Assembly: GCA_017470165.1 (NCBI GenBank)
Contig: JAFUEX010000012.1
Location: forward strand, 8,149-72,148
Length of the DNA stretch: 64,000 nt
DNA from: Alphaproteobacteria bacterium
GTDB lineage: Bacteria; Pseudomonadota; Alphaproteobacteria; RF32; CAG-239
Direction: 5' to 3'
Part shown: positions 13,956-64,000 of the stretch, piece after piece
Numbering within the stretch: the first letter of the stretch is position 1
Layout: each line of letters opens with the position of its first letter
Notes under the pieces: model-generated
The model's database searches: none
Told to the model about the DNA's origin: nothing
The model's input: the letters and a program-made list of their open reading frames with translations, nothing else
Made by a program: the position numbers and the translations under genes

Positions 13956-14116
13956 ATTCTCTTGAACCGGAGTTGTTAATGATAAAAAGGTCTATAACAA
14001 ATTTTTAGGCAAAAATAAAGCATTATTTTTACGGCTATGGAGTAGTTTTAATAAAATACGGAATTACATTTTGCCATCATAAACTGCCTTGAAAGGTAAA
14101 AACAGGAGAAATTGAA

Positions 14117-15427
14117 GTGAATAACGATAAAAATGCCAGTGTTTACAACATCAATAAAGAATATCGCATAGTTAATTTGAAGGGAAATAAGTGCTCGTTG
14201 TTTTTTAAGAACAAGCAAAATATGCTGTTGGCAACTTTGGAGGGCTGCGGGCAGGTGTTGACCAATATTCTGACCAGCTCCGAGCGTGATTTGAGTGAGA
14301 TTGAAAAGGGATATTTATTGTCGTTTATTCGCGCCAAAAAATATTCCATCGCCAAAGAAGTGGCCGAGTTTTTGAGTGTGTCAATCATTCAATACGAAGA
14401 CGGGCGGGAAGAATATTTGTCCGAAAAAATGCTCAAAAAACGGATTGCCTCCGGCATCAATTTTGCCAAAGTTTTTGTGGGCAAACTAAAGAGCGCGCAT
14501 CTGATTATTCCGGCCGAAACCCGTAATTGCAGTTATAACTTGAGCAAGGCGGAAGTAGGAGTATTGACGCTGGAAGAAGGTAACAGTATCAATATTGATT
14601 TACGGGATAATGAATTTGTCGAAAGATTGGTGATAAAAGACAAGTTTTCCGGAACTTTGAGTTTGGCGCGCACTAATCTTGAGAGTGTGGCAATCGGCAA
14701 CAACTGTCGCTGCAATTTGATGATGAGTGATTCGAAAAAATGTGTCAATTTGCAAATCGGCGATGTTTTGAGCGGCAACATAAACATTATTAACAGTTGT
14801 TTATATGCGCTTAATATCGGTTATTATGCTTATGCCGATATTATGCTGTCAAACAATACGGTGAAAAAAGAAATCGCAATCGGTGATGCGTTTCGCGGCG
14901 GTATTTATGCGATTAATCAGGCAACCGATTGGTTTAAAATCGGCAATGATTGCAAAGGGTGGGTTAAACTGAATAATCAAAATATTATCTCCGGAGTAAG
15001 AAACTTGCTGGCGGATAATGATTTTGCCGGAAATATTAACTTATCAGGAGACGGCAGTGTGCGCAACATTAATATCGGCGAAAGATTGATGGGCAAGATT
15101 GATGCTACTTATGCCGGAGGACTGGAAAGAGTGGTGATTGGCAAATATTTTAACGGGACGGTGGATTTGAGCGGGGCAAAAGTGCGGCAGGTTTTTGCCG
15201 ATTACGGAGCCAGCGGGGTGGTCAATTTGCAAAACTGCCGGCAGATTGATTTTTTGCAGGCTACGGTGGATAATGATTTGCAGATTACCGGCGAGATAAA
15301 ATCAGTGGATGCATTGTCGGGAGACGGCAAGATAATGTATTATTTTCGCGATAGAGACAATGATGCAGTAAAAGTGCCGCTATTAAAGCGTTGGTACCAA
15401 AATTGGCATAATAAATATCGTCTGTAA
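14117..15427 (+). CDS. HTH domain protein with a C-terminal tandem-repeat (beta-solenoid-like) region
   Basis: The GTG start has aggag 7 nt upstream. Residues about 62-110 look XRE-HTH-like (YSIAKEVAEFLSVSIIQYEDGRE). Residues about 170-385 carry some 10 repeats with period 20-24 and consensus xIGdxfxGxixl. Confidence 0.6.
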   Translation: MNNDKNASVYNINKEYRIVNLKGNKCSLFFKNKQNMLLATLEGCGQVLTNILTSSERDLSEIEKGYLLSFIRAKKYSIAKEVAEFLSVSIIQYEDGREEYLSEKMLKKRIASGINFAKVFVGKLKSAHLIIPAETRNCSYNLSKAEVGVLTLEEGNSINIDLRDNEFVERLVIKDKFSGTLSLARTNLESVAIGNNCRCNLMMSDSKKCVNLQIGDVLSGNINIINSCLYALNIGYYAYADIMLSNNTVKKEIAIGDAFRGGIYAINQATDWFKIGNDCKGWVKLNNQNIISGVRNLLADNDFAGNINLSGDGSVRNINIGERLMGKIDATYAGGLERVVIGKYFNGTVDLSGAKVRQVFADYGASGVVNLQNCRQIDFLQATVDNDLQITGEIKSVDALSGDGKIMYYFRDRDNDAVKVPLLKRWYQNWHNKYRL

Positions 15428-22520: not shown

Positions 22521-24133
22521 TGGCTTTGTTAGAAATCAGAAAACTTACCATCGGTTTCAGACATGAAGATGGCGGCAAGTACAGCGTGGTTAAAAATGTT
22601 AATCTGGAGCTGAACCGCGGCGAGGTGCTGGGAATTGTCGGAGAATCCGGCTCGGGGAAATCGTTGACCGCTTTGTCGATTGTGGGGTTGCTGCCTTATC
22701 CCAAGGCTTATCACGGTAAGGAGAGCTCAATTAAGTTTTCCGGGGTGGAACTGTTGGATAATCGCAGCCTCAATGAAATACGCGGACAAAAGATTGGGTT
22801 TGTGTTTCAAGAGCCGATGTCCAGTCTTAATCCGTTGCACAAAATCGGCGACCAGATTGCCGAAAATCTGTTGGTTCATCAAAAAATGAGCAAAAAAGCC
22901 TCTTTAAGCGAGGCAATTAACCTATTGAAATTAACCGGAATTAAAGATGCTGAACATAAAATTAATGCTTATCCGCACGAGCTTTCCGGCGGGCAGCGGC
23001 AGCGGGTGGTGATTGCGATGGCGGTAGCCAATCGACCGGATATTTTAATATTGGATGAGCCGACAACCGCGTTGGATGTAACGATTGCCGCGCAGATATT
23101 GGAGTTGTTGAAGAAACTCAAGCGGCAGATGAATATGTCATTTATATTTATCAGTCATGACTTGAATATTATTCGCCGGATTTGCGATAGAGTGGCGGTG
23201 ATGCGCAACGGCAAGATAATAGAGCAGGGGAAAGTTGAAGATATTTTCGAACATCCCGAGAATAGTTATACCAAAAGTTTGATTTATTCATCTAATTTAT
23301 TGAAAAAAAACAATAATATTAAATCAGGTTTTGTCTTAACCGCTCGCGGACTGAAGGTGAAATTTCCCTTAAAAAAAAGTTTTTGGGGAAGAGTTACCGA
23401 ATATTTTTATGCTGTGGATGGGGTTTCTTTTAAGTTAAAGAAAGGCAAGACGCTGGGGGTAGTAGGTGAATCCGGTTCAGGGAAAACCACTTTGGCACAT
23501 ACTTTGATGCAACTGGTTGATTTTGATGGAAAAATTGCTATTGAAGGAAAAGATATTCGGCAGATGACACGATTGGAGTTGGCTAAAAAAGTGCAAATCG
23601 TATTCCAAGATCCATTCAACTCGCTTAATCCGCGGATGACTGCGGGCGAAATTATCGGTGAGGGGTTGAAAATTCATCATAAAAATATGGCCTCGGATGA
23701 ACAAAAAAACATAGTCGGGCGTTTGTTGAAAGAAGTTGGATTGAAAGATGATGCCTTTGATAAATATCCTCACGAGTTTTCGGGAGGACAAAGGCAGAGA
23801 ATTGCCATTGCTCGGGCTTTGGCGGTTGAGCCGGATATTTTGATATTGGATGAGCCGACAACCGCGTTGGATGTAACAATTGCTGCGCAAATTATAAAAT
23901 TATTGCAGAAAATTCAAAGAGAAAGAGAGCTTTCTTATTTGTTTATATCTCATGATATGCGAGCGGTCAGGGCTTTGGCTGACGATATCGCGGTGATGAA
24001 GGACGGAAAAATCGTGGAGATGAACAATGCGCAGCAACTATTTAAAAAACCGCAACATAGTTACACAAAATATTTGATTGAAGCCAGCGCTGACAAAAAA
24101 TCTAGTCATCAAGCCACGAAACGAGTTGGTTGA
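22520..24133 (+). CDS. yejF: ABC transporter ATP-binding protein with duplicated ATPase domains (YejF-like)
   Basis: It has two Walker A motifs ([16 protein letters not shown]) and two signatures ([16 protein letters not shown]). Its start overlaps the yejE stop (TGATG). Confidence 0.9.
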
Positions 24134-24890
24134 ATGACATTGCCAAATCTTCGGGATGGGTAGTTGTCGGACAAAGCGAAAAAATAGTGTAACTATCGGC
24201 AATTTTATCTTGCAAAAACTGAGCAAAATCAACATTTCCTTCACCTAAAACAACATATCTCTTAAGCTCGGCATCATAATCCGAAAGATGAAAATAATGA
24301 CAAGTGTTGATAATATCTTGTAATTCCTGAGGGGTAAAATCATCTTCAGAAGCGATGATTTTTCCCGTATTAAGCAAAGGATGAATATTGGAAAAATTAT
24401 AATTTTCAAATAGTTGGTGAATTTTATTAATGTTGGATATTGTGCAGTTTGCATTAATATTGAGTTGGAGACCGATACCGCGCTCCAAAGCCATTTGGCT
24501 ATATTTATCCAAATCATCACCCAGTGCGCTAATTTCCAAATGTGAGCTTTGCAGATAAGAATAAATGCTGATATTCTGAGCGCCGAGAATATCGGCAACA
24601 TCCATCAGTTTGATGAAATAGTCTTCTTGTGAATCAACAACTTGCCCCATAATGGAAAAGTTTTTCTCACCTTGAGGCCAATACAAGAACGGGGAATTTA
24701 TCTGAGAGACCAAAACACCGGCCTGAGCTATCTTATGCGAAATTGCCGCAAGCTCGGAAGCTGTAAAATCAATGATGTTTTTGCCGTCAAGCGTGCGGAG
24801 TTCGATATAGCGGAATTGGTTTTTGCGCGCAAAACTAAGTGCATCATCTATAGAGGCGGAATATTCGTCATTAATAAAACTGATGTCCAT
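24102..24890 (-). CDS. sugar phosphate isomerase/epimerase (xylose-isomerase-like TIM barrel) family protein
   Basis: 262 aa whose general pattern matches the AP_endonuc_2/TIM family (FRYIELR..., ...LSDYD...VLGEGNVDF). Its 3' end overlaps the yejF 3' end by 32 nt. Confidence 0.6.
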
Positions 24891-25159
24891 TATATTTATG
24901 TCCCGATGTTGAAGAAATATGATGCCGATTATTATGCTAATTTGTTATGAAAATCAAGCAAAATATTTTATCGATATTTAAGTTTTTTGTTTTCCTTGAG
25001 TCAACATAATATGCATTATGCGACATTTTTGATATGGGGTGATGTAACCCACCCTCTAACGATATTTAAAAAACGTCACCTTGAACTATCCTCTAAGCAA
25101 GTTTGGACAGTTCATAATGGTGGCGGATTTTTTTTATTTAAATCAATATAAATGTTTTT

Positions 25160-45308: not shown

Positions 45309-45605
45309 ATGGAAAAAAGAAAAATTAATATCTCATTGGATGAGATGAAGAAATTGCGTCAAAATCAGGTTAGTTTAGAAGATTCTTTGAATTTTTTGAA
45401 GAAAAAAGGGTTAAGTAACGAGGAGATGGTAAAAGGCTGGAATGAGGCCTATGAGACGAAATGTCTGGGCATTCAGCGCAATCAGTTTCCTGGAGAGAAT
45501 CTCTCTCCTAGAGAGGCGTTCAGGTTCTTGTTCAAGAGTGTGGACGCCCACACTATGAAAGCCAAATATCCAGAGTTTCTGGATTTTATTCAAAATCAGG
45601 AATGA
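45309..45605 (+). CDS. hypothetical protein (98 aa)
   Basis: ORF track entry in AT-rich sequence with its own promoter-like element. No family recognised. Confidence 0.5.
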   Translation: MEKRKINISLDEMKKLRQNQVSLEDSLNFLKKKGLSNEEMVKGWNEAYETKCLGIQRNQFPGENLSPREAFRFLFKSVDAHTMKAKYPEFLDFIQNQE

Positions 45606-45658
45606 CGCAAAAAAGAAAAAGCCGTTGGTTATGCAATAAACCGGCGGCTTTTCGCGTT

Positions 45659-46354
45659 TCAGATACCCAAATCTTTGGGCCAAGGCAGTTTATTAAGACG
45701 GAAAAACTGCATTATCTCACTCCAATACAGTCGTTCGTTATAATGCATACGCCCGTCGGCCAAGCATATTTTGAGCAAGGTTTTCAGCAAATTATTAACA
45801 TCGGCCGTCGATTTGCCGGCCAGCTTGCTGAGCGAATCATAAAATTCCACTTGCGAGATACTTAAGGAACACAGATATTTGTTGATATAATGCAAGCTGA
45901 CATTATCAAACAAGTTGAGCCGGTATTGGATATATTCGTCAATAACTCCGATTTTGAGCTTTTGACTGTCATCATCACTGCAAGCCATAAACAGCATCAG
46001 CACAATATCATCATACAGCGGCTGCAACAGCTCGCCGTTTTTGCGCTTTTGCTGGCGAATTGAGGCGGTTTCGTCAGTATGGGAGCCGACAGCATCTTCG
46101 CCCAGCAGCGCATAAAAATCGCGGATAAATTCAACAGGGGTGTCATAAACCTTGTCACGGCTTAAATCGCGGATGGTTTGAATATAATGCTGCTCAAAAA
46201 TAAATGTCTTTTCCAAACGATAGATATAAATACTGAAAAAATACACTCCCCCTTTTTGCACAATACTGCGGACAGCGGCGGTTTCGGTATAAATGCGGCC
46301 GGAATTGACCAAATCTATGTTCAGATTATAAAATTTGTCCGTGGTTTGCGGCAT
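45659..46354 (-). CDS. hypothetical protein with a possible TerB-like C-terminal domain
   Basis: 231 aa. The C-terminal half (LMLFMACSDDD...LLKTLLKICLADGRMHYNERLYWSEIMQFF) resembles TerB/DjlA-N helical repeats. The call is weak. Confidence 0.45.
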   Translation of the reverse strand: MPQTTDKFYNLNIDLVNSGRIYTETAAVRSIVQKGGVYFFSIYIYRLEKTFIFEQHYIQTIRDLSRDKVYDTPVEFIRDFYALLGEDAVGSHTDETASIRQQKRKNGELLQPLYDDIVLMLFMACSDDDSQKLKIGVIDEYIQYRLNLFDNVSLHYINKYLCSLSISQVEFYDSLSKLAGKSTADVNNLLKTLLKICLADGRMHYNERLYWSEIMQFFRLNKLPWPKDLGI

Positions 46355-46431
46355 AAAATCAGCCCTTAAAAAACATTATTGTCGAAAATATACTATAAAT
46401 AAAAAATGATAAAAAATTGTTAACTGCGGGA

Positions 46432-46460
46432 TTGATTTTAGATTTTGAATATGTTAACAT
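46432..46460 (+). promoter_or_regulatory. putative promoter with extended -10
   Basis: ttgatt, 17 nt, then (tgt)taacat. Confidence 0.35.
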
Positions 46461-46503
46461 CATCGATGTAGAGATGAATTATTAACTTAAAACAATATAT
46501 ATT

Positions 46504-46986
46504 ATGTACACAATCAGATTAGGGGATGTTTATGAAGTTTTCGGCGCTTCAAAACTTGATACCCGCAGAATTTGTAACTTATGTTTGCGTTCTGTATCGC
46601 CGGTCGCCTTAGAGTATGATAAGACTTATGGATTTTGCGTCAACTTTTTGGGAATCTCCGGAGAAGATTTGATGGGCTATTTAGACCTGAACGAAGGTCG
46701 CAAAAATGTCTATCAATATTTGAGCAATGGGGTTGTGCTTGATGAGGATTTGCGTTTTCTTAAGGCCAAATTGACCGAAATGCGAGTGGCTCGTTTTGAA
46801 TACAAAAGTGTGCCTTGGTTGAAATTGTCCAAGAAACTGCGTGCTCGTAAAAAGTTAAGCAAACTTGCCAATGTGCCGATAGATGCTCAATATGTCTTTG
46901 ATATGACGTATTATTATTTTACCCGCACTTTGGGATTGTCTAAAGATGATGCAAGGAAAAACATAATACATTGCATCAATAGCTAG
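46504..46986 (+). CDS. hypothetical protein (160 aa)
   Basis: ORF track entry. No family recognised. Confidence 0.5.
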   Translation: MYTIRLGDVYEVFGASKLDTRRICNLCLRSVSPVALEYDKTYGFCVNFLGISGEDLMGYLDLNEGRKNVYQYLSNGVVLDEDLRFLKAKLTEMRVARFEYKSVPWLKLSKKLRARKKLSKLANVPIDAQYVFDMTYYYFTRTLGLSKDDARKNIIHCINS

Positions 46987-47068
46987 AGAGGCGGACTAAC
47001 TACCTGACCGAAAAAACTGTTTATCAGTTTTTTCGGTTTTATTTTTGGCAAATTTTGACATTTTGGAG

Positions 47069-47097
47069 TTGATTTTGAAGAAAAAATATGGTATAAA
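47069..47097 (+). promoter_or_regulatory. putative promoter with extended -10
   Basis: ttgatt, 17 nt, then (tgg)tataaa. It contains aaaaatatggtata, also seen at 15468-15481. Confidence 0.4.
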
Positions 47098-47136
47098 ACT
47101 CGCATAAGCTAAATTATTAATAATAAAAAATATATT

Positions 47137-47637
47137 ATGATGAGCATGGTAGACATACGCAGTGCTTACAGGTGTCTGAGCACTCGGGAGAAAGCCAGCC
47201 AAAATTATGACCGGTTGATTGATTGGGTAGTTTTGAGCTTGGCACGGGTTAGAAGCGAATACCGCATCGTCTATGACCTGATAGCGATGGGAACTTCAAA
47301 TCCGCAGTACCTTTTCCACTACTGCGACTTTACTATCTCCCGGCCGGAGATAGCAGAGTTGGTACACCGCCAATATGATACTGACAACAATCCGGTTTTG
47401 GTAAAATGTCAGGCAATTGATGGTTTGTATTTTTTGAAAAAACAACAAAATTTTTTCAAAGGAGTTGTTTATACACTCAGGTTAAGAAAAAGATTCAAAG
47501 AGATTCCTAACAAGGAAGACCTGCTCGAAGCCTGTGTGATACGCCTGAAAGAGGTAAAAACGAACGAGCAATTGGAAAGAGACTTAATGGCTCGCATTGA
47601 GCAATTGCAAGCGCTGACCTCACAAGAAGAAGTTTAA
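47137..47637 (+). CDS. hypothetical protein (166 aa)
   Basis: ORF track entry with a C-terminal coiled-coil-like segment. No family recognised. Confidence 0.5.
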   Translation: MMSMVDIRSAYRCLSTREKASQNYDRLIDWVVLSLARVRSEYRIVYDLIAMGTSNPQYLFHYCDFTISRPEIAELVHRQYDTDNNPVLVKCQAIDGLYFLKKQQNFFKGVVYTLRLRKRFKEIPNKEDLLEACVIRLKEVKTNEQLERDLMARIEQLQALTSQEEV

Positions 47638-47643
47638 TTTTAA

Positions 47644-47676
47644 CCCCCGCTGTAATCGTTTACAGCGGGGATTTGT
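47644..47676. terminator. hairpin between convergent genes
   Basis: ccccgctgtaa-tcgt-ttacagcgggg, a perfect 11-bp stem. Confidence 0.65.
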
Positions 47677-50600
47677 TTAGTGCAAAAGCTCGGCAATTTT
47701 GCTGATATATTGCTTGATGGTGCGCACTCTGGTTTCATAAGATGAGAAATCACCGGCTATGAGCAACCGCTGGTCGGGACGGATTTTGATGGCACCGAAT
47801 GATTTGTTAATCATTGCAATCAAGCGCTCGGGATAAGCAAATGTATTGTTGTGAAAACCCAGCAATATACCCTTGGCTCCGGCGTTAATTCTATCAATAC
47901 CGCACTGTTGGCAAATAATTTTTATTTCTACCACGGTTAAAAGGTTGGACACCTCAAGCGGCAGCTGACCGAAACGGTCAATCAGTTCTTCTTTCATATC
48001 ATCAACCGCAGCGAAATTATCAATATCGCCGATGCGTTTATAAAGCCCCAAACGCAGTCCCAAATCCCCGACGTAGCTTTCGGGAATAAGGATGGGAATA
48101 CCGATGGCAATTTGCGGCGCCCAATCATCTTTGGGAGCGGCAGCGGTATGCGAATTTTCGGCCTTGAGGCGAGCAATTTCTTCTTCCAGCATATGCTGAT
48201 AAAGCGAGATGCCGACATCTTTGATATGACCGGATTGCTCTTCACCCAAAAGATTGCCCGAGCCGCGCAAATCCATATCATAGCTGGCCAAAGAAAATCC
48301 GGCGCCCAGCGAATCCAAAGATTGTAAAATTTGCAGTCTTTTTTGCGCCAAATCACGCAGACGATGGTTTTTCTGAACGGTAAAATAAGCATAACCGCGG
48401 ATTTTTGAGCGGCCGATGCGCCCTTTGAGCTGATAAAGCTGTGCCAATCCGAACATATCCGCGCGGTGAATAATCATAGTATTAACCCGCGGCATATCAA
48501 TGCCGGATTCAATAATGGTAGTCGAGAGCAAAATATCACCGCTGCCGGAGGCAAAATCGCTCATTACATCTTCAAGATGCGATGGCGACATCTGCCCATG
48601 GGCCACCAAAACCTTGACATCAGGCACCATCTCGCTTAATACGCGCTCAACCTCCGGAATGTCAGCGATTTTGGGGCAAACATAAAAGGTTTGGCCGCCG
48701 CGATGTTTTTCGCGCAAAATGGCCTCTTTTATCATCACCTTGTCAAAGGGAAGCACAAACGAGCGTGCTGCCAAACGGTCGACCGGCGGGGTGGCTATCA
48801 CGCTGAGTTGTTTAACTCCGGTCAAACTCAACTGCAAAGTCCGCGGTATAGGGGTTGCGGTCAAGGTCAGAACATGGACACCGTTTTTAAGAGTTTTGAG
48901 TTTTTCTTTGTGCGCCACGCCAAAATGCTGCTCTTCATCAATAATCAGCAATCCCAAATTACCAAACTCCACCTTTTGCGACAACAAAGCATGGGTTCCT
49001 ATAACAACATCAACCGCGCCGGATTTGAGGCCTTGGATGACCTCGGCGCTTTCTTTAGCGGTAACCAACCGTGAGAGCATCCGAATATTAATCGGAAAAC
49101 CGGCAAATCTCTGGCAAAAATTTTGATAATGTTGCCGCGCCAGCAAGGTGGTCGGTACAATAACCGCCACCTGAGCACCGGATGAAGCAACCACAAAGGC
49201 TGCCCGCATAGCCACTTCGGTTTTGCCAAAGCCGACATCTCCGCAGATAAGCCGGTCCATCGGCCTGCCCTGCTCCAAATCGGAGATAACATCAGCGATG
49301 GCATTGAGTTGGTCGTCGGTTTCGCTGTAAGGAAAACGCGCACAAAAATCACCGTATAATCCGGCAACCGGCGAAAATATTTCAGCTTTTTGCAACTGAC
49401 GAGCGGCGGCTATTTTGATTAATTTTTCGGCCATATCGTGAATTTTGTTTTTTACCCGAGCCTTTTTCAGGCTCCATGCCGTGCCGCCCAGCTCATCAAG
49501 CTCGACCTGAGCATTGTCATTGCCATAGCGCGACAACACATTGATGTTTTCAACCGGCACAAACAATTTGGAGTTTTTGGCATATTCGATTTTGAGACAA
49601 TCGTGCGGCGCCCCGTCCACCACCAAAGTCTCGAGTCCGACAAACCGCCCCAAGCCGTGCTCAATGTGCACCACCAATTCACCGGAAGTAAGAGTTGAAA
49701 TGTCAGCGATAAAATTAGCGGAAGAATACTTTTTCTGCTTGTGACGGTCGATTTTTTCACCCAAAATATCAGCCTCGGCCACCAAACAAATCCCCTGCCC
49801 TTTGAAACCGTGCTCAAACGGTGCGGTTATCAAAGCGATGTGCTTTTTGCCGCAAACGCAAGCCTCATCCCAGCTGTCTATAGAAACCAAATCGGTGATA
49901 GCGTGCTCTTGGAGCAGCGACTTGATCCGCTCGCGACTGCCGGCCGAATAACAGGAAATTATGCGCACGGATGAGGTGTTGGCCTGCAAAAACTGCTGCA
50001 AATCCTGATAAACCTGCTGCAAAGCAATGTTTTTTATTCCGGCAAACAGGCGCATCGGCACAAATCCGTAGTCACAGACCGCATCTGAGGCCGGTAAGTT
50101 GAGCGAGGTAAAAGAGACAGAATTTTTGCGCTGCAGTAATTGTGAAAAATCTTCTTCGGACAGATACAATAACTCGGGCGCAACCGGACGATAGACCTCG
50201 CCTTCCGCCGAGGGTTTTATCTCCAAGTCCTGCAAACGTGCAGTATAATAATCGGCGATGCTTTCGGTTTTGGATTTAAGTGCATCAAGCAAATTTTCGG
50301 CAGTGATAATATGCGCTTGAGGCAAATAATCAAACAAGCTCACCAACTGATTATTATAGAAAAACGGTAGCCAATTTTCCATACCGATATATTTATGCTT
50401 TTCGGAAACAGCGGCATAAATCTCGTCATTATTGGCCTCGGCTCCGAAAGCCTCGCGATAACAACCGCGAAAAGCAGCCACTGCCTTATCATCCAGCACG
50501 ACCTCGCTGACCACACGGAAACAATAACTGTCCAACACTCCGCTGGTGCGTTGGGTCATCACGTCAAAAGTGCGGATACGCTCAACCTCGTCATCAAACA

Positions 50601-61164: not shown

Positions 61165-61524
61165 CTAACGCCCGTACATACGTTTGTACATATTATAGAA
61201 GCGCAGAGCTTCTTCTTTATCGCAATCGTATGTCACGCTATCACTGATGAGCAGCGACAAAGCGCTAAGATTAGCCGGATCAAATTTATCAACCTTAGCC
61301 AATCTTATTAGCTTCGGCCAATCACGATCAATAATGGCATCGGCCTCTACACTGCTTTTGCAACGAGCGGCCAAAGAAACACATTCGCCATCGTGAAAGC
61401 CGTATTTGGCATCATATTTACGAACCAACTCTTCGGTTAGTGAATAGTCACCGTAAGATGCCCACTTCTTAAACAAGGCAGCTTCCTGAGACGGAGCTAC
61501 TTTTTGCAATCTAAAATTTTCCAT
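61165..61524 (-). CDS. hypothetical protein (119 aa)
   Basis: ORF track entry. No family recognised. Confidence 0.5.
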   Translation of the reverse strand: MENFRLQKVAPSQEAALFKKWASYGDYSLTEELVRKYDAKYGFHDGECVSLAARCKSSVEADAIIDRDWPKLIRLAKVDKFDPANLSALSLLISDSVTYDCDKEEALRFYNMYKRMYGR

Positions 61525-61704: not shown

Positions 61705-61780
61705 GGTCCCATCGTCTAGCGGTCTAGGACATCGCCCTCTCACGGCGGTAACGCGAGTTCGAGTCTCGCTGGGATCACCA
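61705..61780 (+). tRNA. tRNA-Glu(CUC)
   Basis: ggtcccatcgtctagcggtctaggacatcgccCTCTCACggcggtaacgcgagttcgagtctcgctgggatcacca has a Glu-type D arm, anticodon CTC and an encoded CCA. Confidence 0.9.
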
Positions 61781-61787
61781 ATACAAG

Positions 61788-61816
61788 CGGCGCTTAGTTT
61801 TAAGCGTCGTTTTTCT
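61788..61816 (+). terminator. tRNA-Glu intrinsic terminator
   Basis: cggcgctta-gttt-taagcgtcg (one G-U pair) followed by tttttc. Confidence 0.7.
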
Positions 61817-62131
61817 TTTTAAATCAAGCACTTAATTGAATTCGAAAGTTTATTTTTTGAAAAAGCACATTTTGGGATATTTTACGAACTTTCACGAATC
61901 ATAAAGGTAATTTTAGTCAATTAAATTAATAAATTAGACAATTTTTAGGTGGTCAATTTACACGTACGTTTTTGCAATTAGATAAGTTGACATTATCCTT
62001 GGCTGTGTCAGGAAAAACGCCGGACACGCGTTCTTTCGGAGTATAATCAATTAGGCGGTATATTAAAAGTTTTAATGCACGTTGGGCGAATAATCGCCGA
62101 GTTGTTTGGCTGTTTTCAAATTATTATTCAT

Positions 62132-62216
62132 CATTTTGCAGATTCTGCTTGCCTCTATCTTTTTTGACAATATAATATTCATTGTAATTAGGTAATTTAT
62201 AAGACATTTTGCAGAT
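62132..62216 (+). repeat. 12-bp exact direct repeat cattttgcagat (62132-62143 and 62205-62216) bracketing 61 bp
   Basis: Read directly. The 73-bp offset is not a multiple of 3 and coincides with a frame change in the radical-SAM-like remnant. Confidence 0.8.
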
Positions 62217-62447
62217 GACAAAAGGTTTGTTTTTCATAGTCCTTTCTTTACGCCAAAAGATTGTTTTGTGGGTCGGATTTTACATATAAATCCTTGGGGA
62301 TACTTTACACCTTGCCCGCTATCTAATAAAGTTTTGGGGAACATCTTTACGATTTCTGACGAAGACTTAGATACTTTAATAAACAATACACCAAAACTCA
62401 TTTGTTTAAATAACGAGGATATAAGAAATGATGCAAAGCAATATTAA
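62196..62447 (+). pseudogene. C-terminal remnant of a radical-SAM enzyme with a twitch/SPASM-type auxiliary-cluster motif (no start codon; upstream parts frameshifted or lost)
   Basis: This is a stop-free frame with no Met: ...FHSPFFTPKDCFVGRILHINPWGYFTPCPLSNKVLGNIFTISDEDLDTLINN...KLIC...*. It contains C-x11-G-x4-C, which fits CX9-15GX4C, followed by GN. It overlaps the PqqD-like start by 20 nt. Confidence 0.4.
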
Positions 62448-62718
62448 GTTAGTGCTAAGTCCTAAAGTAATTACCAGGAAGCAAGATGGTAAGTTTTATT
62501 TATACAATCGAGATACTGAAAATGTGCTTGAATTGAATAGTATTGGCATGGAAATTGTTGAAAAACTTCAAACAAAAATTTCCTCTGAGGAATTAGCCAT
62601 ATATTTTTCAAATAAGTATAATATTTCTGTTGATGAAGTAATTACCGATATTAAAGATTTCATAGAAGCATGTATTGATAAAAAGTTCTTGTTGCAGGTA
62701 GAAAATGAAGACTCTTGA
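62428..62718 (+). CDS. PqqD-family protein (RiPP recognition element-like peptide chaperone)
   Basis: 96 aa reading ...KFYLYNRDTENVLELNSIGMEIVEKLQTKISSEELAIYFSNKYNISVDEVITDIKDFIEACIDKKFL. This matches the PqqD pattern (x-LN-x-G-x-I-W..., E.., Y.v...D...F...L....l). SD gagga lies upstream. Confidence 0.65.
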   Translation: MMQSNIKLVLSPKVITRKQDGKFYLYNRDTENVLELNSIGMEIVEKLQTKISSEELAIYFSNKYNISVDEVITDIKDFIEACIDKKFLLQVENEDS

Positions 62719-63901
62719 TGTTCTGGAAAAATTGATAGCCTTTGATACGGATGTTCAGAACTCTTCATTGGGTGCTGTACATTTTGTGGCAAACTATCTT
62801 TCAGACCACAAAGCAAATGTTTCACTTATTAGTAAAAACTATGGAGGACAACAGGATGCTAATCGTGAATCATTGATTGCATCGTTCGGAGAGATTGAAA
62901 AACCGGGAATTATATTTTCAGGACACTTGGATACCACAACAATAGTTGAACAAGAATATTTATGGGAGCGAGATCCTCTTAAAATGACTGTCGTTGATGG
63001 TCGTGTTTTTGGTAAAGGTTCAACAGATATGAAAGGAGCAATTTCTGTTCTTTTATCGCAAGTTGAAAAATTGAAAGTATTAGCAAAAAAATATCCTGTA
63101 CATATTGTTTTGACACATGATGATGAAGAAGGAGTTTTTACAGCTATAAATCAACTGAAAGACAATAATTTTTATAATCTTTTTCCCATAAAACAAAAAG
63201 GTTGTATTGTTATGGAACCATCGGAGTTACATCCGGTAAGTGCACATCGAGGAAACAAAAGAATATCCGTAGATGTTTATGGCAAAACTGCTCATGGAAG
63301 TGTTCCCCATATGGCTGTTGATGCTGTTTATTACACATTTCAGCTTTACAAAAAAGCAAAAGAGTTGGCTAAAATTTATTTCACCGAACAAGATAATCGT
63401 TTTGAATATCCGAGAACAAGTCTAAACATAAGTAATTTTCACGCCGGTATGTCTGATTCAATGATTCCTGATAAATCTCATTTTGACTTAAGTTGTCGAT
63501 ATGTTCCGAATGAGAATATTGAAAAATTTTTTGAAAGATTTTATTCATCTATCAGAATTATAGAAGATGAGATGAAAGAAAAATCTCCTGAATGTTCTGT
63601 TATCATTACAAAGAGAAATCACGTTCTTCCCTTAAACACAAAACCAAACAGTGAGATTTTAAAACTTGTGCAATATTCTGCTAACAATAATAATGCAAAA
63701 TCCGTAACATATGGTAGCGAAGCCGGATATTTTCAGAGCATGGGGATTGATACTGTTATTTGCGGTCCTGGTAATATAATGTACGCTCACAAACCAAACG
63801 AATTTGTTTTAATGGCTGATTTAATAAAATACGAAAGATTTTTATCAAATATGATATCTTTCAACAATTTTCACAGAAAGGAGTTTTTTAGAAATGATTA
63901 A
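62705..63901 (+). CDS. M20-family metallopeptidase (ArgE/DapE/acetylornithine deacetylase-like)
   Basis: It has FSGHLDTT...W..DPL...DGRVFGKGSTDMKG, then LTHDDEEG, MEPSE, the AHRG.. dimerisation region and SEAGYF...ICGPG....AHKPNEFV. Confidence 0.85.
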   Translation: MKTLDVLEKLIAFDTDVQNSSLGAVHFVANYLSDHKANVSLISKNYGGQQDANRESLIASFGEIEKPGIIFSGHLDTTTIVEQEYLWERDPLKMTVVDGRVFGKGSTDMKGAISVLLSQVEKLKVLAKKYPVHIVLTHDDEEGVFTAINQLKDNNFYNLFPIKQKGCIVMEPSELHPVSAHRGNKRISVDVYGKTAHGSVPHMAVDAVYYTFQLYKKAKELAKIYFTEQDNRFEYPRTSLNISNFHAGMSDSMIPDKSHFDLSCRYVPNENIEKFFERFYSSIRIIEDEMKEKSPECSVIITKRNHVLPLNTKPNSEILKLVQYSANNNNAKSVTYGSEAGYFQSMGIDTVICGPGNIMYAHKPNEFVLMADLIKYERFLSNMISFNNFHRKEFFRND

Positions 63902-64000
63902 GCTTGTTATTCCCTCTTCTAAATATAAACAAACATTTATATCAGCCGTTAAGGAAATAAAAAAACTTCAAGGTTTCATCTCTCCGTCAGTGCAACAATT
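63894..64000 (+). CDS. N-terminus of a further coupled gene (cut by the window end); weak resemblance to starts of some GNAT acetyltransferases
   Basis: My own translation gives MIKLVIPSSKYKQTFISAVKEIKKLQGFISPSVQQ... The ATG overlaps the M20 stop (ATGATTAA). Confidence 0.35.
   Translation, partial: MIKLVIPSSKYKQTFISAVKEIKKLQGFISPSVQQ

Follow-up and report, generated by a model that had tools for sequence, protein, structure and literature searches.

What is the chain of overlapping genes that follows the tRNA-Glu gene at the end of this 64,000-nucleotide stretch of alphaproteobacterial DNA (the window), and what would such genes make? The original prediction, made from the sequence alone, described an AT-rich island at positions 61781 to 64000 that carries the tail of a radical S-adenosylmethionine (radical-SAM) gene followed by genes for a PqqD-like protein, an ArgE-like M20 peptidase, and a possible acetyltransferase, and it proposed an uncharacterized peptide- or amino-acid-modifying cluster. 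Comparison with related loci indicates that the stretch is very probably the remnant of a rare peptide-modifying cassette; as a peptide-modifying cluster, the window copy is nonfunctional. The features of the locus are listed below. L001 is a 90-kb metagenome contig, 11296 nt of which are identical to the window, that was used to read past position 64000. RRE denotes the RiPP recognition element, where RiPP is a peptide that is ribosomally synthesized and then posttranslationally modified.

61964 to 62200, plus strand: conserved upstream/promoter region of the cassette (81% identity with L015 1743-1988, the segment immediately 5' of the L015 precursor gene)
62149 to 62176, plus strand: sigma-70-like promoter match TTGCCT-16-TATAAT, just 5' of the deletion junction (10 of 12 consensus positions; identified by consensus only; the region has no more matches of this kind than expected from shuffling)
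62197 to 62200, no strand: deletion junction (728 nt absent relative to L015)
62211 to 62447, plus strand: 3' remnant of the radical-SAM maturase gene, 78 codons and the natural stop, a pseudogene (family C-terminus alignment)
62428 to 62718, plus strand: PqqD-family peptide chaperone (RRE), 96 aa, intact open reading frame (ORF) (Pfam PqqD)
62705 to 63901, plus strand: M20 metallo-hydrolase of the ArgE/DapE type, 398 aa, intact ORF (Pfam M20 and M20_dimer)
63894 to 64000, and to 64445 on L001, plus strand: 5' part of a GNAT acetyltransferase gene, 35 of 183 residues being in the window (Pfam on the full protein)
61781 to 64000, reaching approximately 65180 on L001, no strand: AT-rich island (GC content), ending just before the lon stop at 65241
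61705 to 61780, plus strand: tRNA-Glu, anticodon CTC, the left neighbor of the island (ARAGORN; Rfam tRNA, 57.4 bits)
61785 to 61812, plus strand: terminator-like hairpin and T-run 3' of tRNA-Glu (consensus scan; L001 9081-9108)

Window positions 62197-64474 align with L015 2717-4991 at 95% identity, and the 728 nt of L015 that are lost at the junction comprise the 17-codon precursor gene, its hairpin, and approximately the first 195 of the approximately 275 radical-SAM codons. The same picture of deletion was obtained against L021, relative to which 712 nt are lost. As the precursor gene was removed together with approximately 70% of the radical-SAM gene, none is left at the window locus, and what survives is the promoter region, the final 78 codons of the radical-SAM gene, and the PqqD, M20, and GNAT genes. 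An assembly artefact was ruled out as the cause of the truncation because six assemblies (L001 to L006) from several samples share the identical 71-nt string across the junction; the M20 and PqqD proteins of the window were also found unchanged on several metagenome contigs. The predicted radical-SAM remnant proved to be the end of the family gene, aligning residue for residue with the family C terminus, including the invariant residues C217, C234, and C264, and scoring 17.3 bits against Pfam SPASM (cutoff, 21.5). Inspection of the ORF table confirmed the chain of four frames: the radical-SAM tail ORF (62268-62447) overlaps the PqqD gene by 20 nt, the PqqD gene overlaps the M20 gene by 14 nt, and the M20 gene overlaps the GNAT gene, with its ATG at 63894, by 8 nt (ATGATTAA). 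L021 carries an intact cassette that is 82% identical, and at the start of its contig, approximately 2.7 kb 5' of the cassette, 62 nt match the 3' part of tRNA-Glu, suggesting that the island already lay at tRNA-Glu before the deletion occurred.

Two observations were made alongside this comparison. The conserved upstream stretch (61964-62140) contains a hairpin at 62005-62027, formed by the inverted repeat GTGTCAGG…CCGGACAC, for which no Rfam family was found; it may act as an operator or a small RNA. The closest relative, L015, is a horse-faeces metagenome-assembled genome (MAG) that is 94 to 95% identical, and its radical-SAM gene is frameshifted by a one-base deletion in an A-run (approximately 2140-2270); an intact protein (P0125) nearly identical to the L015 radical-SAM enzyme is present in other samples, and the L015 frameshift is either a sequencing error or an independent decay.

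The intact cassette has the order promoter, 17-codon precursor gene, hairpin, radical-SAM, PqqD/RRE, M20, and GNAT, with the last four genes chained through short overlaps. This order, with a radical-SAM gene for 265 to 277 aa, was found in L012/13, L015, L016, L018/19, and L021-23. L020, a Bdellovibrionota MAG, has the same genes minus GNAT and plus an inserted gene for threonyl-tRNA synthetase (ThrRS), and L010 and L014 have M20-GNAT without the other cassette genes. The radical-SAM family is rare: 5.8 billion proteins yielded ten clusters at 90% identity. When 1.84 billion representatives were searched exhaustively by profile, one 50%-identity radical-SAM cluster and three distant relatives were identified, two of these relatives being inspected. 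At L028, the precursor MKKWKKPVVKKVKVNFTC is followed by the radical-SAM gene and then by a PqqD-methyltransferase fusion, while at L029 a 47-aa ORF precedes the radical-SAM gene and then PqqD. The cassette has a GC content of 30 to 33% across hosts of 29 to 46% GC, and among its neighbors are phage-like genes in L015, IS110 in L012, and a type III restriction-modification system in L016; the uniform GC content and such neighbors are consistent with mobility. No published description of the cassette (PqqD with M20, radical SAM, and ThrRS, or the peptide motif) was found in the open-access literature, which is absence of evidence only, and no NCBIfam equivalog matched the combination of RRE, M20, and GNAT. 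The cassette is apparently rare and undescribed; the original prediction had likewise not recognized that pairing as a described RiPP class. In two phyla, [FeFe]-hydrogenase maturase genes were observed directly 5' of the cassette and in the same orientation, encoding HydG and a TM1266-like regulator in L018 (5986-7770) and HydE in L020 (6837-7841; TIGR03956, 387 bits).

Translation of the short spacer 5' of the radical-SAM gene revealed the putative precursor, and one conserved ORF of 17 to 18 codons is present at every locus that carries this radical-SAM gene (L012, L015, L016, L018, L020, L021, and L028). The peptides follow the consensus MW-x-K-P-x-[IV]-[IL]-x-x-x-K-L-x-L-T-C-stop, examples from intact loci being MWTKPIIITSKKLNLTC, MWIKPAVINEMKLTLTC, MWTKPLIISERKLSLTC, MWVKPRIISEKKLSLTC, MWTKPVILSEEKLDLTC, and MWIKPLILSERKLSLTC. 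Ribosome-binding sites are present, the copies differ from each other by synonymous codons, and a GC-rich hairpin comes next. For L020, the ORF was located downstream of the genes encoding the radical-SAM enzyme, PqqD, and ThrRS. The L029 version is 47 aa long, ends in LWEKPKINSIKAKFSC, and has the same C-terminal 16 residues; adding L028 and L029 leaves W-x-K-P and a C-terminal [L/F]-[T/S]-C as the invariant features. Three PqqA sequences, validated against the Pfam PF08042 and TIGR02107 models (36 to 48 bits), were compared with the peptides: two start with MW[KT]KP and the third lacks the motif. The original prediction had placed the precursor and further enzymes downstream of the window. 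Neither is present there on L001, and the precursor gene of the intact relatives lies upstream of the radical-SAM gene, in the part deleted here.

The 96-aa protein was correctly anticipated to be PqqD-like, as it scores 28.4 bits against Pfam PqqD (PF05402; gathering threshold, 23.4). Among PDB entries, a profile of its family matches TbiB1, TfuB1, and PqqD with E values of 1e-7 to 1e-4 (TbiB1, 1.5e-7; a lasso PqqD chaperone, 1.2e-7; PqqD 3g2b, 2.5e-5). A single-sequence AlphaFold2 model (predicted local distance difference test score, 78) shows a winged-helix fold, with three helices coming after a β-sheet, and matches TfuB1 6jx3 with a template-modeling (TM) score of 0.79 (root mean square deviation, 1.4 Å), TbiB1 5v1v with 0.76, and PqqD 5sxy with 0.72; the TfuB1 and TbiB1 structures are leader-peptide complexes. 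From profile and model, the protein is predicted to be a genuine leader-binding protein of the PqqD/RRE type.

Proteins of the radical-SAM family are 265 to 305 aa long and contain CX3CX2C (C15, C19, and C22 invariant) as well as the invariant C217, C234, and C264 in a short C-terminal domain. The hallmarks of the superfamily, CX3CX2C and PF04055, are found in the intact relatives only, the window copy having lost that part. The full seven-cysteine SPASM motif is absent, and the three invariant C-terminal cysteines together with the small size point to a short, twitch-like domain with a putative single auxiliary cluster. No NCBIfam cutoff was reached by the enzyme; its best PDB match by both sequence and fold is the RiPP maturase SkfB (58 bits; TM score, 0.74; 18% identity). 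This similarity hints at possible thioether formation as in the sacti- and ranthipeptide synthases. These synthases share with the cassette a short auxiliary-cluster domain and a substrate with a conserved Cys. However, SkfB has 410 aa compared to the 265 to 305 aa of the cassette enzyme, which lacks the fused N-terminal RRE of SkfB because its RRE is a separate protein.

The remaining two genes encode a hydrolase and an acetyltransferase, both as proposed. The 398-aa protein belongs to peptidase family M20 (PF01546, 74.7 bits; PF07687, 55.4 bits) and, when aligned with Escherichia coli ArgE (7rsf), retains the GH-DT, DMKG, D-EE, EP, and AH-P-E motifs. It reaches neither ArgE equivalog (TIGR01892, 239.3 versus 297.7 bits; NF005710, 288 versus 412) and is far below the cutoffs of all DapE models. 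Its clade consists of seven clusters at 58 to 94% identity and one at 41%, beyond which lie ordinary ArgE-like proteins at no more than 35% identity. The 183-aa protein is a GNAT acetyltransferase (PF13302, 38 bits, cutoff 25.4; PF00583, 34.6 bits, cutoff 20.7). Across the family, the ratio of nonsynonymous to synonymous substitution rates (dN/dS) is 0.11 to 0.29 for PqqD, M20, and GNAT. In L014 (8677-11778), an atypical class II synthetase of 390 to 420 aa, AspRS/AsnRS-like and below all equivalog cutoffs, was observed directly preceding the 41%-identical M20 gene and its GNAT gene, at a locus with no peptide, radical-SAM, or PqqD genes.

Of eight contexts, four have a ThrRS gene next to the cassette, in three architectures. 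In L012/13, L016, and L028, this gene immediately precedes the precursor gene on its 5' side, whereas in L020 it is enclosed by the cassette, with PqqD on one side and the precursor gene on the other. The enzymes of L012 and L016 form a rare clade with no detectable editing domain (editing-less) whose next relatives (no more than 50% identity) are not alphaproteobacterial; that of L020 lacks the TGS domain, and that of L028 is full length. The L020 ThrRS is 73% identical to a second ThrRS of L024, which stands beside one of the editing-less type and heads another biosynthesis-like operon, indicating that it is an extra copy there. The two divergent ThrRS genes of L024 (282-9833) are back to back, and the operon headed by the TGS-less one encodes a U32-like protein, a pyridoxal phosphate enzyme, an Asp/Glu racemase, an Asn-synthase-like protein, a methyltransferase, and a D-Ala-D-Ala-ligase-like protein; it may be another ThrRS-linked biosynthetic cluster. 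A second cassette was also observed between an editing-domain-less thrS and infC in L025 (8001-13000; also L026 and L027; human-gut MAG GCA_902464445.1), in the order Amidohydro_2, P-loop kinase-like protein, 29-aa ORF (MKQDKKIDSVKIIKMQIANNTCSTSGSYK) with a hairpin, 353-aa radical-SAM/SPASM enzyme, and GNAT. It presents the same theme of a peptide, radical-SAM enzyme, hydrolase, and GNAT beside ThrRS with nonorthologous parts.

To which known system does the cassette belong? It resembles pyrroloquinoline quinone (PQQ) biosynthesis in its very short M-W-x-K-P precursor, stand-alone PqqD-fold chaperone, and adjacent radical-SAM gene, and in the expectation of chemistry on a few residues near the C terminus. 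However, its peptide lacks the Glu…Tyr pair, ends in Thr/Ser-Cys, and gives no score with the PqqA models; the PqqE model (cutoff, 381) gives its radical-SAM enzyme 47.8 bits, and the auxiliary cysteines of this enzyme number only three. PqqB, PqqC, and PqqF genes are missing from the cassette (neither pqqB nor pqqC was found at any locus), whereas pqq operons lack M20, GNAT, and ThrRS.

Mycofactocin biosynthesis likewise combines a short peptide with a PqqD-like RRE, a radical-SAM enzyme whose target is the C-terminal dipeptide, and a dedicated releasing hydrolase; in that pathway, MftE cuts off the modified C-terminal unit (PMC10885120). The cassette enzyme, however, scores 44 bits on the MftC model TIGR03962 (cutoff, 265), its hydrolase is an M20 protein and not a creatininase homologue, and its peptide ends in Thr/Ser-Cys rather than Val-Tyr. 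MftD and MftF are absent from the cassette, no creatininase, flavin mononucleotide oxidase, or glycosyltransferase gene was found nearby, and an association with ThrRS is no feature of mycofactocin clusters.

For the pearlins and 3-thiaglutamate, the C-terminal residue of a scaffold peptide becomes the product and is cleaved off by a metalloprotease (PMC10885120). A scaffold peptide with a C-terminal product, as may be the case for the cassette, and a link to the aminoacyl-tRNA world would be common to both. In contrast to the pearlin pathways, the cassette has no PEARL/LanB-like ligase or MNIO enzyme, its Cys is genetically encoded instead of being added from tRNA, and its hydrolase is an M20 protein, while the carboxypeptidase-type releasing enzymes of the pearlin pathways are M50 or TldD/E. 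As for ArgE and DapE, which hydrolyze an amide on the amino side of a residue bearing a free carboxylate, the cassette M20 shares their fold family, dimerization domain, and metal and catalytic motifs but is found in a peptide-modification context and not among arg or dap genes. The cassette resembles the PQQ, mycofactocin, and pearlin pathways in its logic and is probably of the radical-SAM/RRE peptide-maturation type, but by these comparisons it belongs to none of those three groups. We have considerable confidence that the trio of peptide, radical-SAM enzyme, and RRE is a RiPP-type maturation system.

The best overall explanation, which we regard as probable, is that a pathway similar to those of PQQ and mycofactocin, directed at a C-terminal Thr/Ser-Cys, has left its dead remnant in the window. 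By analogy, PqqD would bind the N-terminal W-x-K-P segment, a motif in common with PqqA peptides, and hand the peptide to the radical-SAM enzyme, which would modify the invariant C-terminal Thr/Ser-Cys. A cross-link, either C-S or C-C, would be the likely chemistry, and decarboxylation might accompany it, as it does in mycofactocin. The ArgE/DapE-type M20 enzyme might then free the modified C-terminal unit from the scaffold or hydrolyze it for self-protection, and GNAT might N-acetylate the liberated amine; that M20 releases a small molecule from the peptide C terminus is a tentative proposal, somewhat more doubtful than not. The cassette-linked ThrRS would most simply be a resistant target copy, which would make the product threonine-mimicking or ThrRS-directed; whether ThrRS is the product's target or a resistance copy we judge as close to balanced, leaning slightly against. 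The producing half is dead in the window strain; the M20 and GNAT genes may survive there on their own for processing or immunity, as in L010 and L014. The island is a recent deletion remnant that shows decay of the cassette with the hydrolase and acetyltransferase pair retained.

A bolder form of this proposal, which we consider speculative and unlikely, would have the intact cassette define a new class of ribosomal-peptide-derived small molecule, a threonine-mimicking and possibly zinc-binding ThrRS antimetabolite. A minimal radical-SAM/RRE pair would build on the Thr/Ser-Cys of a PqqA-like scaffold, M20 would cut, and GNAT would acetylate; extra ThrRS copies would confer self-resistance, and M20-GNAT pairs would be orphan immunity modules, the window remnant being one of them. 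With or without this bolder form, the inferred pathway, if real, would be a fourth example, beside PQQ, mycofactocin, and the pearlins, of a small molecule made from the end of a genetically encoded peptide. The precursor would be among the shortest known, the radical-SAM enzyme would be unusually small, and the ThrRS association would provide a concrete target hypothesis, which is rare for an orphan cluster. All components of the cassette are small and open to direct synthesis and expression.

Several findings weigh against the preferred reading of a PQQ/mycofactocin-like pathway. Neither a product nor a modification or activity has been observed. When padded with three X, the 17-aa peptides gave no matches to Pfam or NCBIfam, including PF08042 and TIGR02107, so that their membership in PqqA is unsupported. 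M20 and GNAT are absent from the two most distant cassettes, L028 and L029, and are thus accessory genes. No informative characterized relative of the GNAT protein was found, its PDB matches being weak (YpeA, E = 0.02). The makeup of a classical tRNA-targeted island is also incomplete: deviant composition beside a tRNA gene is present, but neither an integrase-like ORF between tRNA-Glu and lon (contig L001) nor a direct repeat of the tRNA-Glu 3' end at the far border, both suggested as targets by the original prediction, was found. Its proposal of horizontal acquisition stands in part, favored by the foreign composition and the varied, mobile-looking contexts in relatives and disfavored by the lack of an integrase or att-type repeat.

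The ThrRS link carries further points of this kind, as the gene is missing from four of the eight contexts, including that of the window, where none was found. The adjacency could be positional, the cassette tending to land in the thrS-infC region or by tRNA genes. In L025 to L027, the editing-less ThrRS gene lies 5' of infC with a different peptide/radical-SAM/GNAT cassette between them; this arrangement suggests a hot spot, and the adjacency in L012 and L016 could reflect insertion there. Moreover, the L015, L018, and L021 copies lack ThrRS as the window copy does, and the editing-less ThrRS of this gut alphaproteobacterial lineage may be its housekeeping enzyme. However, three ThrRS architectures occur with the cassette in at least three distant lineages (editing-less in L012/L016, TGS-less in L020, and full length in L028), the L020 gene is embedded between PqqD and the precursor gene, and the L020 type is an extra copy heading another operon in L024. 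Chance adjacency to one gene in three to four independent contexts would be very unlikely, and we rate a purely positional explanation as plausible yet unlikely.

The main rival, which we also consider unlikely, leaves the peptide/radical-SAM/RRE trio as it is, but M20 and GNAT would not be biosynthetic and would form an immunity module of the microcin C type that detoxifies an aminoacyl-type warhead beside a resistant aminoacyl-tRNA synthetase, with the window pair being an orphan immunity module. Such a reading would account for the orphan pairs of L010 and L014 and for the pair kept in the window. MccE, a GNAT protein, and MccF, a peptidase, protect from processed microcin C, and their homologues are common outside mcc clusters. 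M20-GNAT is alone in L010 and, in L014, comes directly after the atypical AspRS/AsnRS-like gene; the distant peptide/radical-SAM/PqqD cassettes L028 and L029 lack the pair, and an additional ThrRS copy is documented in L024. Purifying selection is also apparent between the window and L015 (dN/dS, 0.16 for M20 and 0.14 for GNAT), although these values are based on few substitutions. Against this, the GNAT protein has no detectable sequence similarity to the MccE or RimL structures, and the M20 enzyme is unrelated to MccF, an S66 peptidase of a different clan, although an analogy of function may exist. The alphaproteobacterial M20 gene also overlaps PqqD (14 nt in the window) or abuts it (L018 and L021), as would be expected of a pathway enzyme.

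The 17-codon ORF could instead be a transcription-attenuation leader that senses Thr/Cys charging for the operon or thrS, since it is very short, is directly followed by a terminator-like hairpin, and in three loci separates thrS from the operon. This is very improbable, as the ORF has a single Thr and a single Cys codon and no tandem regulatory codons, and conservation is found at the N-terminal W-x-K-P and the last two residues, as in PqqA-type substrates. In addition, the 47-aa L029 version conserves only the C-terminal 16 residues, the L020 ORF sits 3' of the radical-SAM, PqqD, and ThrRS genes, and the ORF is always accompanied by a dedicated RRE and a radical-SAM enzyme resembling RiPP maturases. 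An ordinary arginine or lysine operon, in which M20 would be ArgE/DapE, GNAT a short N-acetylglutamate synthase, and PqqD incidental, and which the original prediction had named among the outcomes that would overturn it, is extremely unlikely: acetylornithine deacetylase models and E. coli ArgE are the best named matches of the M20 protein, but it falls under every curated cutoff (239 versus 297.7; 288 versus 412) and forms a separate clade of approximately eight clusters with no more than 35% identity to any ArgE, the GNAT protein matches no ArgA model, the GC content is 13 points under that of the host, the context varies among relatives, and the genes are chained to PqqD and the radical-SAM remnant.

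The borders of the island were examined on L001. The stretch 61781-64000 has a GC content of 0.321, compared to a mean of 0.455 (standard deviation, 0.026; minimum, 0.382) for other 2220-nt windows; being approximately 5 standard deviations low, it excludes chance and bears out the predicted AT-richness after the tRNA-Glu terminator. Past position 64000, the remainder of GNAT (to window-equivalent 64445) is the sole further cassette sequence, so the expectation that the cluster would continue was not borne out. GNAT is followed by a perfect 21-bp hairpin terminator (L001 11877-11923, window-equivalent 64581-64627), approximately 500 nt devoid of a credible gene, and the convergent lon gene, beyond which lie the core genes fliN-like, kdtA, lpxK, infC, and ligA. 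The GC content returns to 0.49 to 0.53 within lon, and this recovery and the gene content of L001 delimit an island of only approximately 3.4 kb with three intact genes. The stretch 61781-64000, extending to approximately 65180, is a compositionally foreign islet.

An Rfam scan of the noncoding parts returned the tRNA alone above threshold, other matches, on the terminator hairpin, being below gathering. A 91-codon open frame after the GNAT terminator (L001 12142-12417) has no start codon and no family match and was set aside as junk or a pseudogene. The GNAT-terminator hairpin recurs, 92% identical, at L021 2444-2480, 5' of the cassette, which suggests rearrangement inside the island. On the minus strand of the window, a 119-aa ORF (61165-61524) between a coenzyme A-disulfide-reductase/rhodanese gene and tRNA-Glu has no family match above threshold and is kept as 114 to 119 aa on related contigs. 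Another low-GC patch (45600-47700; 0.39 to 0.41), flanked by an OmpA-like lipoprotein gene and mfd, contains ORFs of 231, 160, and 166 aa, and further low-GC patches of the window are located at 1-1000, 14000-15000, and 24000-25000.

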